Assembly (NCBI GenBank): GCA_039801885.1 | Contig: JBDRVN010000018.1 | Location: 2,961 to 29,098, forward strand | Length of the DNA stretch: 26,138 bases | From: a candidate division WOR-3 bacterium | GTDB taxonomy: Bacteria > Hydrothermota > Tepidihabitantia > Tepidihabitantales > DTDR01 | Direction: 5' to 3' | Part shown: piece after piece, positions 9,320-25,361 of the stretch | Layout: every line of letters starts with the position of its first letter | Numbering within the stretch: the first letter of the stretch is position 1 | Made by a program: the position numbers and the translations under genes | The notes under the pieces: model-generated | Told to the model about the DNA's origin: nothing | The model's input: only the letters and a program-made list of their open reading frames with translations | Database searches by the model: none

Positions 9320-10498
9320 CTACAAGCCAATATCGGCTGGTGCCCGGCCAAGTTCGTGAAGAAGATTAATTATTTCCTTTATTTTTTTGTTGGCATCTTC
9401 ACCAACGCCATCCCGATTTGGATAGATTTCGTATAAGGTCGCATAACCTTTTGGTGTCAAATTAATCATTAAAGAGTTAGCACCGGCTAACAAACCTTTT
9501 CTTAAACCATCTTTTTTATCTAATGTCTGCATTGCGGTGGTAACAAGAATTTTACTATTGGGATAAAGAATTCTTGCTTGGGCAATAGTATCTAAAATCT
9601 TTTCCATCGGTGGTGGGAAGGAATCTTTTAAAGGTGTATCCGGATGAGGAATAAAAGGACCGAAAGAAAACATTTCGGCACAAAGTTCATTAGTTAAAGC
9701 AAGATTGTTTAAAATATCTTCTTCTTCCTCGCCGGGTAAACCGATTAGAAAACCGGTCATTATCAAATAACCGATATTTTTTAACTCTTTGATTAAATTA
9801 ATCCTATCCTCCAATTTCTTACCCGGTCGCATCTTTTCATAAACTTTTCTATTACCGGTTTCAAATCTCAAAAGTACTCCGCGGGCACCCAACTTATAAA
9901 CTCTCTCAAAAATTTCAAGCTCTCGCTCACCGATGCTTAATATTAGCAAGCAAGGGCTTTCTTCCATTATTCTTTTTACAATATAAGACAATTTATCTAT
10001 ATCATAATATAAATCTTCACCCGATTGAAAAACCAGAGCCTTAAAATTTAATCTTTTTATGGCATAAAAGGCTAAATTTATTATCTCATCGGGGTCCATT
10101 CGATACCTTTTCAATTTTTTATTATCTTTTCTTAAACCACAATAAAGACAATTATTTTGACAGTAGTTGGAAAATTCAATTATTCCGTGAATGCAACAGG
10201 AATTATCGTGGTATTCCTGACGAATTCTATTGGCAATCTTATATAAATCTTTAGAAGGATAGATAACCCTTAAATCAATCTCTTTTAATTGATGAAAAAA
10301 TTCTTCCCACACTTTTAATGTCTCCCTTGCTTCTTCTTCGGGAATTTTTTGGATAACAAAACCACCTTGGGCATAAACATAATCACCAATCTTTAAATCA
10401 TAAAAATCGTTTCTTACTTTCTTGACAATGCCAAAATATTCAATCTTACAGATATTATTATTTATCTCAATAACCTTTCCGGGAATCGCATAACACAT
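9320..10498 (-). CDS. HypC/HupF domain fused to a HydE-like radical SAM protein
   Basis: Residues ~1-68 MCYAIPGKVIEI...IEYFG..KKV...LKIGDYVYAQGGFVIQKI.EEEARETL match the HypC pattern. The remainder has GIIEFSNYCQNNCLYCGLR, VFQSGED, LSIGE, LLRFET, GFLIGLPG, GPFIPHPDTPL, TTAM, AGAN..M.N and YEIYP as in HydE. Confidence 0.88.
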   Translation of the reverse strand: MCYAIPGKVIEINNNICKIEYFGIVKKVRNDFYDLKIGDYVYAQGGFVIQKIPEEEARETLKVWEEFFHQLKEIDLRVIYPSKDLYKIANRIRQEYHDNSCCIHGIIEFSNYCQNNCLYCGLRKDNKKLKRYRMDPDEIINLAFYAIKRLNFKALVFQSGEDLYYDIDKLSYIVKRIMEESPCLLILSIGERELEIFERVYKLGARGVLLRFETGNRKVYEKMRPGKKLEDRINLIKELKNIGYLIMTGFLIGLPGEEEEDILNNLALTNELCAEMFSFGPFIPHPDTPLKDSFPPPMEKILDTIAQARILYPNSKILVTTAMQTLDKKDGLRKGLLAGANSLMINLTPKGYATLYEIYPNRDGVGEDANKKIKEIINLLHELGRAPADIGL

Positions 10499-10510: not shown

Positions 10511-11899
10511 TCAGAAATATAAATCCCTTTCTCCGTTCTTTATTTTTTCTATTCTTTTTATTGTCTCTTTTCTTATATTCTCGTTATCAATTTGATTGAG
10601 ATAATATTCAATTACTTCGTATCCTTTTTCATATATCTCTTTCTTACCATTAGTTTTAGCAAAATCTTCTAAATATTCAACGAAAGTTAGGATTCCGTTT
10701 GGACGACAAAACTTTTGAATCTCACCTGGTTTGGCGAGATCCATAAAGTCCTCACCAGTTCTTCCAACCCGATAACAAGCAGTACAGAAACTGGGAATTA
10801 ATTTATCTTTTAAAATATCATTAATAACCTCTTCTAAATTTCTTAAATCATAAATTTCAAATTGGGCTTCTTCTTTAGAAAAACTTTTATAACCACCAGG
10901 TGAAGTTTTTGAGCCAGCCGAGGTCTGAGATATTCCCAATTTAAAAGCAAGCTTTCTTATTTCTGGTCTTTCTCTTGTTGACAAAATCATTCCAGTATAA
11001 GGAACCGCTACTCTTAAAATCGCAATAATCTTTAAAAAATCTTTATCAGAAACCAAATATTCCGGTTGATAAGTTACTGTGGGAGCATTTCTAAACCTGG
11101 GAACAGAAATTGTGTGGGGACCGACACCTAAATATTTATCCATAAATTGTGCGTGGGAAACCAAAGAGATCACTTCAAATCGCCAGTCATAAAGTCCAAA
11201 AAGAACGCCAATTCCTAAATCATCAATACCCGCTTCAAAGGCTCTAATATGAGCAGTAATCTGTCTTTCATAATCATCCTTTGGTCCTTTATGTAATTTC
11301 TTATAAGTTTCATAATGATAGGTTTCTTGAAATAATTGATAAGTGCCAATTTTGGACTCTTTTAATTTCTTATAATTCTCCTTTGTTGTTGCCGAAATGT
11401 TAACATTTATTCTTCTAATATTTCCCTTTTCAGTTTTCACTGAATAAATTGTTTCAATTGCGGAAACGACATAATCAATTGGATTATTCACTGGGTCTTC
11501 ACCACATTCCAATAGTATTCTTTTATGACCCATCTCAATTATTCTTTTTGTCTCTTCTTTTATCTCATCTAAATTTAACTTTCTTCTTTTCATTGGATTT
11601 CTAATATGGAAATTACAATACTCACAATCATTAACACAGAAATCAGAAATATATAAAGGAGCAAAAAAGACCAATCTTTCACCATAAATCTCTTCTTTTA
11701 TCTTTCCGGCAATCTTAAAAAGTTCATCAATAAGTTCTTTATCTTTCAAATTGGTTAAATAACCCACCTCTTCTAAGGAGAGCCCTTTCTTCTCTTTTGC
11801 CTTATCGAAGATTAATTCAATAGTTTTCTTATCGGGATTTTTCGTATTCTCTAAAATTTCAAAAATTTTTTCTTCGTTACAAATTTCAATAATTTTCAT
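10511..11899 (-). CDS. hydG: [FeFe]-hydrogenase H-cluster radical SAM maturase HydG
   Basis: FAPLYISDFCVNDCEYC, YQLFQETY, GVGPHTISVPR (dangler-Fe His) and C-terminal CTAC-x22-C auxiliary cluster motif, which ThiH lacks. Ends GERDLYF. Confidence 0.93.
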   Translation of the reverse strand: MKIIEICNEEKIFEILENTKNPDKKTIELIFDKAKEKKGLSLEEVGYLTNLKDKELIDELFKIAGKIKEEIYGERLVFFAPLYISDFCVNDCEYCNFHIRNPMKRRKLNLDEIKEETKRIIEMGHKRILLECGEDPVNNPIDYVVSAIETIYSVKTEKGNIRRINVNISATTKENYKKLKESKIGTYQLFQETYHYETYKKLHKGPKDDYERQITAHIRAFEAGIDDLGIGVLFGLYDWRFEVISLVSHAQFMDKYLGVGPHTISVPRFRNAPTVTYQPEYLVSDKDFLKIIAILRVAVPYTGMILSTRERPEIRKLAFKLGISQTSAGSKTSPGGYKSFSKEEAQFEIYDLRNLEEVINDILKDKLIPSFCTACYRVGRTGEDFMDLAKPGEIQKFCRPNGILTFVEYLEDFAKTNGKKEIYEKGYEVIEYYLNQIDNENIRKETIKRIEKIKNGERDLYF

Positions 11900-11907
11900 T
11901 AACTTAA

Positions 11908-11936
11908 ATTATAATCCCTATTTATTATAAAATCAA
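11908..11936 (-). promoter_or_regulatory. sigma70 promoter TTGATT-17-TATAAT for the hydG operon
   Basis: Consensus -10 ends 8 nt before ATG 11899 and there is no SD. Confidence 0.6.
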
Positions 11937-11985: not shown

Positions 11986-12525
11986 GTGAAGAGGATTTTA
12001 GATAAAATTTATTGGCTGTTTAATATAATCTTTTTAAAGAAATATGAAGGCTATTTGGATATAGAGACAACAAATTTGGAAACAGAAAAAGGCGAAATAA
12101 CGGTAATTGGTTTTGGTATTGATAAAGGTAAAAAATTTGAATTTATCCAACTTATTAATAATGAGATAACTACTGATAAACTAATTAAAATTATAAAGAA
12201 AATAAAAATCCTTTATACTTATAACGGCACAGATTTTGATTTAAAATTTATCAAAAAGAAACTTAATATTGATATAGAAAAATATTGTATCCACAAAGAC
12301 CTAATGAATGAATGTCATCAGAGAAACCTGTATGGTGGTTTAAAACAGGTAGAAAAGAAATTAGGTATTGAAAGGAAACTAAAAGATATAAATGGGTTTG
12401 CTGCGGTGAAACTATGGGAAAGATATAAAAATCTTGGTGATAAAAAGGCGTTAGAAACTTTATTAGAATATAATCGGGAAGATGTACTTAATTTAAAAAT
12501 TTTAAAAGAAAAATTGGAGATTTGA
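11986..12525 (+). CDS. RNase H-like (RNase_H_2/YprB-type, DEDD-like) exonuclease
   Basis: YLDIETT, TYNG.DFDL, H.DL, GGLK.VEK.LGI.R and LLEYNREDV.NL motifs. Confidence 0.85.
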   Translation: MKRILDKIYWLFNIIFLKKYEGYLDIETTNLETEKGEITVIGFGIDKGKKFEFIQLINNEITTDKLIKIIKKIKILYTYNGTDFDLKFIKKKLNIDIEKYCIHKDLMNECHQRNLYGGLKQVEKKLGIERKLKDINGFAAVKLWERYKNLGDKKALETLLEYNREDVLNLKILKEKLEI

Positions 12526-12526
12526 T

Positions 12527-13849
12527 TTGTTAAGAAAAGATTTTTTCTTATTTCTCCTTTTTATATTAATCCGCTTTATCTTTTTCCTTCCTTTATTATC
12601 TAATGAAAGGGCAGTATTAGAAGCAATAAGTGATGCGAAAGAGTATTACAAACTTGCCCAAAATCTTACTTTATCTTTTAATTATGAAAGGGAAGGAAAT
12701 TTTGATACAAAAAGACCGCCCCTTTTTCCCTTTTTATTATCCTTCTTTTATCTTATTATTCCGAAACCTTATATTGGTTTTATCTTCTATCTTATCTTAT
12801 CAATAATTTTCTTATTAATCCTAAAAAAATATTGCGATAAAGAAAGTTTTTATCTCTTTGCCCTTTTCTTTATCTTATCACCCCAGATAAATTTTTATTC
12901 CCTTTTTCCAATTACCGATTTATTTTTTGGAATTATTCTTTTTTTGGGTTATTTCTTCTTAAAGAATAATAAAAATACCATCTCACTAATATTATTTTCC
13001 CTTCTGTCTTATATCAAACCGGTTGGTCTTCTCTTGCCACCTTTTTTAGCAATTCATCGCCTTATCAAAAAGAGAGCCAAAAAAGCCTTACTTTTTCTTT
13101 TCATTCCCTATCTTTCTACTCTTCCTTGGTCCTTTCTCATTTATAAAAAGATAAACTACTTTACTTTTTCTACTTTACCTTATATCAATTTCTTTTCTTA
13201 TTATCTACCTGTTGCTAAATCTTTAAAAGAGAGAATAAGTTATCAAAAGGCAAGGGAGCTAATGAATAGAGATTTAGAAGAGAAGTTAAAAGATAACTAT
13301 ACCAAAAAGGAGTATTGGCAGGCAATTAGAGATATATCTTTAAAAGAACTAAAAAAAGCACCCTTACATTTGCTCTCTTCTCATATCCTCTTTTCTTTTA
13401 ACACCTTAATCTCGCCCATCTCTTTTAAACCTTTATTAATCTATTTAAATAAAGAGATAGAAAAACCTATCCAACAGGAAGTCTTCTCTTCTATTTTAAA
13501 AGGGAAGATAATAGAAGGGATAAAAACTTTTCTTTTCGAACGGTTGATAAAAATTGGCTTTTTTGGTATTTTTCTTCTAATATATTCATCTATCTTCTTA
13601 ATTTTTCTTCTAATTTACTTTGTGAAAATAGTTATAAAAGATAAACCTTTATTAGAGTTATTAATTATATTACCTTTAATATTTTCCACTGGTGTTGTTG
13701 CTGAAGCAAGATATCGGCTCTTATTTGAAATTATCATCTATTTTTTAGTTGCCCAATTTATAATAACTTTCTTAAATCACCGAAGAGCAAACCAACAAAT
13801 AAATGATTTAGAAGGCAAAGGTATAGGGGGAGGGGGTATATACTTATAA
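12527..13849 (+). CDS. Polytopic membrane protein, GT-C/ArnT-like glycosyltransferase
   Basis: First TM followed by SDA.EY..LA.NL and RPPLFP, many TM segments, late ARYRL motif. The last ~25 residues look non-native. Confidence 0.65.
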   Translation: MLRKDFFLFLLFILIRFIFFLPLLSNERAVLEAISDAKEYYKLAQNLTLSFNYEREGNFDTKRPPLFPFLLSFFYLIIPKPYIGFIFYLILSIIFLLILKKYCDKESFYLFALFFILSPQINFYSLFPITDLFFGIILFLGYFFLKNNKNTISLILFSLLSYIKPVGLLLPPFLAIHRLIKKRAKKALLFLFIPYLSTLPWSFLIYKKINYFTFSTLPYINFFSYYLPVAKSLKERISYQKARELMNRDLEEKLKDNYTKKEYWQAIRDISLKELKKAPLHLLSSHILFSFNTLISPISFKPLLIYLNKEIEKPIQQEVFSSILKGKIIEGIKTFLFERLIKIGFFGIFLLIYSSIFLIFLLIYFVKIVIKDKPLLELLIILPLIFSTGVVAEARYRLLFEIIIYFLVAQFIITFLNHRRANQQINDLEGKGIGGGGIYL

Positions 13850-22264: not shown

Positions 22265-22282
22265 AAGTTTAAGAAAATAAAA

Positions 22283-22356
22283 TGGGCGAAACCCGATTTG
22301 AACGGGTGACCTCCTCCTTGTAAGGGAGGCGCTCTCGCCAACTGAGCTATTCGCCC
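22283..22356 (-). tRNA. tRNA-Val (TAC), CCA not encoded
   Basis: GGGCGAATAGCTCAGTTGGCGAGAGCGCCTCCCTTACAAGGAGGAGGTCACCCGTTCAAATCGGGTTTCGCCCA folds as a cloverleaf. Anticodon stem CCTCC/GGAGG, loop CT-TAC-AA. Confidence 0.95.
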
Positions 22357-22367
22357 ATTAGTTATAT

Positions 22368-25225: not shown

Positions 25226-25361
25226 AAGTTTAAGAAAATAAAATGGGCGAAACCCGATTTGAACGGGTGACCTCCTCCTTGTAAGGGAGGCGCTCTCGCC
25301 AACTGAGCTATTCGCCATTAATTATATATCATAATAAAATTTATAAAAATGTCAATAAGAA
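25197..25361. repeat. Direct repeat copy 2 (165 bp)
   Basis: See copy 1. Same orientation, offset 2961/2960 bp. Confidence 0.95.
25244..25317 (-). tRNA. Second tRNA-Val (TAC) copy missing one 5' G (possible pseudo-tRNA)
   Basis: Identical to copy 1 except that + strand TTCGCCATTA replaces TTCGCCCATTA, which breaks the 1-72 pair. Confidence 0.8.

Follow-up and report, generated by a model that had tools for sequence, protein, structure and literature searches.

A gene that joins a HypC-type [NiFe]-hydrogenase chaperone domain to a HydE-like radical S-adenosylmethionine (SAM) enzyme lies on the minus strand at positions 9320..10498 of a 26,138-nucleotide stretch of a candidate division WOR-3 genome (contig JBDRVN010000018.1 of assembly GCA_039801885.1; the whole stretch is referred to here as the window). 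Comparison of gene content suggests that this fusion and the adjacent hydG constitute a two-gene module that stands in for HypC, HypD, HypE and HypF, producing the Fe-CO/CN unit of [NiFe] hydrogenases and supplying it to those enzymes, a reading that is comparative throughout and to which we give a probability of about 0.6. The pattern of genes points to an undescribed second route to the iron-carbonyl-cyanide centre of these enzymes. The two systems that mature hydrogenases are regarded as unrelated and, as far as we are aware, every [NiFe] hydrogenase is taken to need HypC, HypD, HypE and HypF.

The fusion is a single unbroken open reading frame (ORF) of 392 amino acids (aa) that begins MCYAIPGK. 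The initial annotation had described one ORF with a HypC-type N-terminus and Cys at position 2, and this is borne out by the match of residues 1-64 to HupF_HypC (PF01455; 63.6 bits, cut-off 28.5) and of residues 1-77 to the HypC/HybG/HupF model TIGR00074 (54.6 bits, cut-off 48). The HypC domain (residues 1-77; 10268..10498) gives 55 bits against Thermococcus kodakarensis HypC (2z1c), and the codon of Cys2, corresponding to the iron-binding thiol of HypC, is at 10493..10495; this residue is invariant (36/36) in an alignment of 36 relatives. The remainder of the protein matches Radical_SAM (PF04055; residues 107-264, 76.4 bits) and BATS (PF06968; residues 282-363), and residues 82-388 (9335..10255) align with Thermotoga maritima HydE (7o1o/3cix; 239 bits in phmmer), a HydE-like radical-SAM TIM-barrel domain that Foldseek also recovers. 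Among radical-SAM models the HydE model TIGR03956 is the best by far (247.1 bits), and the protein narrowly misses its cut-off (254.6) because nothing in it corresponds to profile positions 1-27; some relatives exceed the cut-off, such as that of genome G015 with 265.5 bits. All of the HydE hallmarks reported initially were located in the translation: the cluster motif CxxxCxxC (C113-x3-C117-x2-C120, CQNNCLYC; 10139..10162), GPFIPHPDTPL (280-290), TTAM (320-323) and YEIYP (356-360). An AlphaFold2 (AF2) model built from 36 relatives, with a predicted local distance difference test score (pLDDT) of 92.2 and a predicted template modelling score (pTM) of 0.91, places a small beta-barrel at residues 7-52, a long helix at 54-76, the start of which belongs to the HypC domain, a second helix at 85-97, and then the TIM barrel. 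Its top structural matches are T. maritima HydE entries (for 3cix, E 4.8e-33, a template modelling score of 0.85 by target, and 41% identity), followed by PylB.

The gene hydG (462 aa, 10511..11899, minus strand; TIGR03955 536 bits, cut-off 312) lies directly upstream in the same orientation, and 12 bp separate its end from the start codon of the fusion. Its product has the radical-SAM motif CX3CX2C at residues 88-95 and the C-terminal auxiliary-cluster motif CX2CX22C at residues 372-398.

The fusion is not a product of chance or of assembly, and it is neither a singleton nor a chimera. Both Pfam domains are present in all 120 of the best-listed database relatives, whose names, where given, are WOR-3, Elusimicrobiota, Omnitrophota and Desantisbacteria, and a search that started from a divergent fusion subtype gave both domains in all 120 of its best-listed relatives, assigned by name to Patescibacteria lineages and Proteobacteria. 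A pattern search of species-representative genomes gave 375 hits, of which 363 encode a relative; the possibility of a singleton or an assembly chimera, raised at the outset as a refutation test, is ruled out by these species representatives together with the two-domain database relatives. The best 80 loci span more than ten bacterial phyla as well as DPANN archaea, and in them the match runs from about residue 1 to about residue 392 wherever the contig permits. Cys follows the start codon immediately in 77 of these loci; of the other three, two are truncated at a contig end and the third carries an Ile codon ahead of the Cys. For alignment, five of the 80 loci were dropped because they were cut or contained N, and rows were added for the window's genome, three genomes of family f3 and one of f13; in the resulting 80 aligned fusions Cys2 is kept without exception, as are the three cluster cysteines. 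We note that at one locus (L037, 10001-12340) the fusion ORF owes its apparent length of 779 aa to a scaffold gap, a run of N that joins it to the next gene.

No cultured carrier was present among the organism names returned for the database relatives and the species-representative loci. The genes are currently annotated as HydE, biotin synthase or HypC, depending on the source, and are therefore easily misread as evidence of [FeFe] maturation. Our literature searches, whose coverage took in few subscription journals, found no description of a HypC-HydE fusion. The accessible part of a survey of archaeal HydE, HydF and HydG treats these proteins as [FeFe] maturases and contains no mention of HypC or HypD (PMC11216029); archaeal fusions may already be listed as HydE in its supplementary tables.

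The window's own genome (1.56 Mb in 70 contigs, 91% complete) encodes three [NiFe] large subunits, each with intact N-terminal RxCxxC and C-terminal DPCxxC motifs. Their operons are 3c-like, 3b-like and group-4-like, and comprise a Vhu/Mvh-like two-gene unit on contig C20 and, on contig C14, a sulfhydrogenase-like four-gene unit and a NuoD-like large subunit inside an Mrp-type membrane operon. The Mrp-type operon (locus L023, 5035-19319) also contains an additional pair of Fer4_22 and FAD/NAD-binding genes, and a 511-aa ORF without a family at its end. Genes hypA and hypB are side by side in this genome, and a HycI-type protease is present. Neither HypD nor HydA was found there, either by profile search or by tblastn with the proteins of relatives; HypF was likewise absent by both approaches, the profile search giving no more than an acylphosphatase-sized piece and a Kae1-like match. 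For HydF, GTPases below the cut-off were recovered by profile and just a GTPase domain by tblastn. The sole HypC match in the profile search is the fusion itself, and tblastn with a relative's free HypC likewise finds the N-terminus of the fusion. Taken together, tblastn searches of this genome with the HypD, HypF, HypE, HydA and HydF of relatives returned only a PurM-like protein and a GTPase domain. This PurM-superfamily protein, of 338 aa on contig C1 next to an Rrf2 regulator, was considered as a HypE candidate and rejected: it scores 118 bits with the HypE model (cut-off 251.6) and 108.7 bits with ThiL, and lacks a C-terminal Cys, the residue in which HypE ends.

Comparison within the phylum sets these gene contents in context. 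An evenly chosen sample of 251 genomes includes 189 with a HypC match and 179 with a HypD match. Ten are of the fused type, namely the window's genome, four of its genus (f1), four of family f3 and one of f13, and most of them are 91-98% complete; the fusion was confirmed by ORF in nine, and in the tenth (G284, 77% complete) no more than a fragment was seen. None of the ten has HypD or HydA, all ten have a [NiFe] large subunit, and nine have HydG, whereas HypD is present in 173 of the 179 genomes with other HypC matches (a tally of listed rows). Nine genomes of f18 and f19 have HydG without HypC or HypD, and all nine have HydA and none a [NiFe] large subunit over cut-off; in the four of these that were checked, HydE is an unfused protein of 332-341 aa that is 36-39% identical to the fusion. 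Within the phylum, therefore, HydG with a free HydE accompanies [FeFe] hydrogenase, and HydG with the fusion accompanies [NiFe] hydrogenase lacking HypD. In one further genome, G153 (contig C55, 1317-2638), a HypC match lies in a 434-aa open frame beside HypD (a 450-aa frame), possibly a HypC-HypD fusion or overlapping frames.

The same pattern extends across phyla. From the 80 loci, 50 fusion-bearing genomes were chosen for taxonomic spread before anything was counted (two coincide with f1 genomes), and whole-genome profile searches found HydG in 48 of them and a [NiFe] large subunit over cut-off in 46 (48 at E <= 0.001), as compared with HypD in one, HypF in two, HydA in eight and HydF in four. 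The tabulation of co-occurrence proposed in the initial annotation thus gives HypD absent from 49 of 50 genomes of the same architecture and a [NiFe] large subunit in 46. All five of the genomes with both HydA and the fusion that were checked encode an ordinary HydE (304-386 bits) in addition to the fusion (253-265 bits), and a single HydG each, which seems to feed both. Where an H-cluster enzyme is made, the fusion is therefore no stand-in for HydE, and the suggestion that it might be a HydF-independent carrier for an H-cluster is disfavoured by this and by the absence of HydA from 42 of the 50 genomes. One Omnitrophota genome, G016 (locus L130, its contig C1), has everything at once: hypC, hypD, a HypE-like gene, a partial hypF, hydA, hydF, an ordinary hydE, hydG and the fusion. 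In this genome the hyp genes adjoin a [NiFe] large subunit with a high score, a hint that each route may have a hydrogenase of its own to serve.

Gene neighbourhoods lend the association further substance. HydG lies within 700 bp of the fusion on the same strand in 58 of the 80 loci, upstream as in the window in 47 and downstream in 11, and 56 of 57 full-length neighbouring HydGs have both the radical-SAM and the auxiliary-cluster motifs. A [NiFe] large or small subunit, protease, hypA or hypB is near the fusion in 34 of the 80 loci, and a [NiFe]-related neighbour occurs in 17 of the 31 loci that have at least 8 kb on both sides; both counts are lower bounds because the BLAST queries were the window genome's own proteins. 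All 24 large subunits linked to a fusion have DPCxxC, and in genome G256 the gene order is large subunit, protease, fusion.

The radical-SAM part departs from HydE at the very place where HydE holds its product. We mapped residues of T. maritima HydE onto the fusions by phmmer alignment and counted each column in the 80 fusions and in 12 ordinary HydEs. The three cluster cysteines are kept in all 12 ordinary HydEs, as in the fusions; the relay methionine M224 corresponds to M276 of the window's fusion (Met in 77/80) and M291 to M344 (Met in 80/80). V105 and L157 are kept in both groups, and the equivalents of R159 and T269 are also kept in the fusion. Roles for the two relay methionines and for residues of the S3 site are given in the accessible portions of PMC10114646 and PMC11826987, which locate S3 close to the surface, along the route by which the product is proposed to leave for HydF, with a conserved Thr and two Arg, and which describe contacts of R54, T134, R155 and T269 with the CN ligands of the product; the accessible text of PMC10114646 also reports that mutating one S3 residue impairs hydrogenase maturation. 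In all 12 ordinary HydEs the R54, T134 and R155 columns are R, T and R, whereas in the fusions the first is H (H104) in 80 of 80, the second is I, F or V in 75 with T in four and S in one, and the third is G, A or S in 80 of 80. Two residues before the new His, the H52 column is Cys (C102) in all 80 fusions. Both residues belong to the sequence C101-C102-I103-H104 (CCIH; 10187..10198, minus strand) at the start of barrel strand 1 (100-108 in the model), where by the alternation of a beta-strand they would face the same side. The S3 product site is thus rebuilt, and the radical-SAM part is therefore not an orthodox HydE: of its initial identification as HydE, the fold, the radical-SAM cysteines and the relay methionines hold, and the S3 residues do not.

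A tree of the HydE domain agrees with this separation. All 80 fusions fall on one side of a branch with a Shimodaira-Hasegawa-like approximate likelihood ratio (SH-aLRT) support of 100, and ordinary HydEs, including those from the same genomes, fall on the other. Forcing the seven fusion rows of the window's phylum together costs 106.6 log-likelihood units (p of 0.00034 in the approximately unbiased test, for a group named after the tree had been seen), which suggests that the module entered the phylum more than once. The distance from F47 to the first cluster Cys also divides the fusions, into a short form of 66-67 residues (51 rows, including the window's) and a long form of 91-107 (29 rows); the long form keeps the N-terminal helices of HydE, which the short form lacks, and includes most of the archaeal and Patescibacteria rows.

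The HypC part, which aligns with the HypC structures of T. kodakarensis, Shewanella and Escherichia coli, is altered as well. The His of the v-H-x-G-F segment, present in all four solved HypC chains that were matched, is Gln in 77 of the 80 fusions and Ile in three; in the window's fusion it is Gln44 (codon 10367..10369, minus strand). In E. coli HypC this His contributes to binding of the iron unit.

These observations allow a path to be proposed. HydG would cleave tyrosine and, on its auxiliary cluster, assemble an Fe(CO)2(CN) complex bound to cysteine, which is the known chemistry of the HydG family. The HydE-like barrel would take up this complex and strip the cysteine backbone by 5'-deoxyadenosyl radical chemistry, a step suggested by the retained radical-SAM motif and relay methionines M276 and M344. 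The resulting mononuclear Fe-CO/CN species would be held at the rebuilt Cys102/His104 exit site, neither dimerised nor passed to HydF, and would then move to Cys2 of the tethered HypC domain. From there it would be inserted into the apo large subunit, after which HypA and HypB would add nickel and the HycI-type protease would trim the C-terminus; the presence of hypA, hypB and the protease gene is what suggests these last steps. Somewhere along the path a swap of one CO for a second tyrosine-derived cyanide would be required to give Fe(CN)2(CO). Turnover of HydG yields a second cyanide, according to the accessible text of PMC10114646, and the atoms for the exchange would therefore be available. 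Of the destinations first envisaged for the fusion, transfer of a HydG-derived Fe-CO/CN species to the HypC thiol for [NiFe] maturation is the one that gene content best supports, with hydG adjacent, HypD absent both from the window's genome and from nearly all of the cross-phylum genomes, and [NiFe] large subunits in most of them. The HypC part had also been expected to act together with HypD, as HypC does; with HypD absent it cannot do so in the window's organism, and the conserved His is replaced. The odds seem to us about even for a stronger proposition, that uncultured bacteria and DPANN archaea make the [NiFe] iron unit wholly from tyrosine by radical-SAM chemistry, with tyrosine as the source of CO and with neither a HypD scaffold nor cyanide from carbamoyl phosphate; the ligand set might then differ from Fe(CN)2(CO).

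Several points weigh against a HydG-fusion route to [NiFe] hydrogenases. The HydG product has two CO and one CN, the [NiFe] site has one CO and two CN, and no step proposed here explains the exchange. With its conserved His lost, the HypC domain may be unable to bind iron in the manner of HypC. The window's pair adjoins no hydrogenase gene, its neighbours being mgtE downstream and an RNase-H-like gene divergent upstream; four of the 50 fusion genomes have no [NiFe] match over cut-off, eight have HydA, and G016 holds HypD and part of HypF besides the fusion. Moreover, the 50 cross-phylum genomes come without completeness figures, and the HypE survey covered only the window's own genome.

Some of these points would suit a different target. 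The module could build a cofactor derived by radical-SAM chemistry, of the Fe-CO/CN or another kind, for a protein outside both the [NiFe] and the known [FeFe] hydrogenases, with the HypC domain as carrier and the co-occurrence with [NiFe] enzymes indirect; the isolated position of the window's pair, the 46 of 80 loci without a [NiFe]-related gene in the available stretch, and the four genomes without a [NiFe] match would all fit. We regard this as unlikely, since it leaves the [NiFe] enzymes of at least 45 genomes without a known source of Fe(CN)2CO and must set aside both the 34 loci in which a subunit, protease, hypA or hypB stands beside the fusion and the gene order of G256. HypC domains (PF01455) are, moreover, known to us solely as chaperones of [NiFe] large subunits. 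About equally improbable is a scheme in which the [NiFe] iron unit is indeed the work of HydG and the HydE-like domain, and the HypC domain serves to dock HydG or to hold the substrate in cis while an unrecognised protein brings the product to the large subunit. Replacement of the conserved His by Gln would agree with it, and the compact two-domain body of the AF2 model (pTM 0.91) would fit a fixed internal role; against it stand the lack of any other HypC-family protein in the window's genome and the conservation of Cys2 in 80 of 80 fusions, a residue that in free HypC is the contact to the iron unit and to the large subunit.

It is less probable still that the protein is an ordinary HydE serving a divergent or minimal [FeFe] hydrogenase that our searches missed, with the HypC domain as an accessory. 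The standing of TIGR03956 as best radical-SAM model (247 bits), the T. maritima HydE fold and the adjacent HydG are what such a protein would show, HydA does occur in eight of the 50 genomes, and small [FeFe] hydrogenases with few maturases are reported from archaea in the accessible part of PMC11216029. Yet HydA was found neither by profile nor by tblastn in the window's genome, nor in 42 of the 50, and HydF is missing from 46; a separate ordinary HydE is present in every HydA-and-fusion genome checked; within the phylum HydA accompanies unfused HydE; and the S3 residues, one of which impairs maturation when mutated (accessible text of PMC10114646), are all replaced. Least probable of all, in our estimate, is that hypD, hypE and hypF exist in these organisms and were missed in incomplete bins, the fusion simply adding CO to a normal Hyp pathway. 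The 91% completeness and 70 contigs of the window's genome, the missing completeness figures for the cross-phylum set and the coexistence of fusion and hypD in G016 leave some room for this. HypD, however, is missing from all ten fused-type phylum genomes, most of them 91-98% complete, against its presence in 173 of 179 others, and from 49 of 50 across phyla in the same genomes that gave HydG in 48 and a [NiFe] large subunit in 46. For these reasons we favour the reading in which HydG and the fusion supply the [NiFe] iron unit in place of the four Hyp proteins.

Other features of the window were noted around the pair. A promoter-like site (TTGATT-17-TATAAT, 11908..11936, minus strand; 10 of 12 consensus matches in a scan) lies upstream of hydG, and is weak because the region holds 15 such sites against 14.5 expected from shuffles. 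Short contigs from one sediment RNA library (X1) match 158 nt of the fusion gene with one mismatch and 223 nt of hydG with none, a weak hint of expression given that DNA carry-over is possible; two further runs, X2 and X3, yielded nothing of use. The gene divergent from hydG (11986-12525, plus strand) encodes a 179-aa protein with an RNase_H_2 or RecB-like nuclease domain, and is followed by an ORF of 440 aa (12527-13849, plus strand) without a Pfam family and with a weak NCBIfam match to a cell-surface glycopolymer formation domain. Two tRNA-Val genes, both with anticodon TAC (22282-22357 and 25244-25317, minus strand), are situated 3 kb apart on either side of a gene for a heavy-metal P-type ATPase.

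If the favoured reading is correct, a module of two genes does the work of four Hyp proteins, and in such lineages the source of CO would be tyrosine; where the CO ligand comes from in the absence of oxygen has long been debated. It would also explain how organisms with very small genomes, such as bacteria of the candidate phyla radiation (CPR) and DPANN archaea, come to use [NiFe] hydrogenases, and it would offer a compact maturation cassette for the heterologous production of hydrogenases.

The fusion is built from known families. With HydE (T. maritima, 3cix, 7o1o) it shares the fold, the CX3CX2C motif, the equivalents of M224, M291, V105, L157, R159 and T269, and an adjacent hydG. It differs in having an N-terminal HypC domain, in lacking profile positions 1-27 in its short-linker form, in the replacement of R54, T134 and R155, in its invariant Cys102 and His104, and in its position on a branch apart from the 12 ordinary HydEs; the window's genome, furthermore, has neither HydF nor HydA. 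With HypC, HybG and HupF (2z1c; E. coli 2ot2) it has in common the passing of both curated cut-offs, the N-terminal Met-Cys, and a beta-barrel followed by a helix. HypC, however, is a free protein of 70-100 aa, whereas this domain is joined to an enzyme, has Gln44 in place of the conserved His, and has no HypD partner in the window's genome.

At the level of pathways, the module resembles the HydG-HydE-HydF route to the H-cluster in its usual HydG, with both cluster motifs, and in the HydE-type barrel that comes next in the operon. Unlike that route it lacks both the HydF scaffold and a HydA to serve as target; the receiving place of HydF would fall to the tethered HypC domain, and the target would be a [NiFe] large subunit. 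With the HypCDEF pathway it shares the presumed end product and target, and hypA, hypB and the endopeptidase are kept. The window's genome, however, lacks the HypD scaffold of that pathway and would have no cyanide derived from carbamoyl phosphate, because it has no HypF and its nearest approach to HypE is a distant PurM-type protein without the C-terminal Cys; the ligands would instead come from tyrosine.

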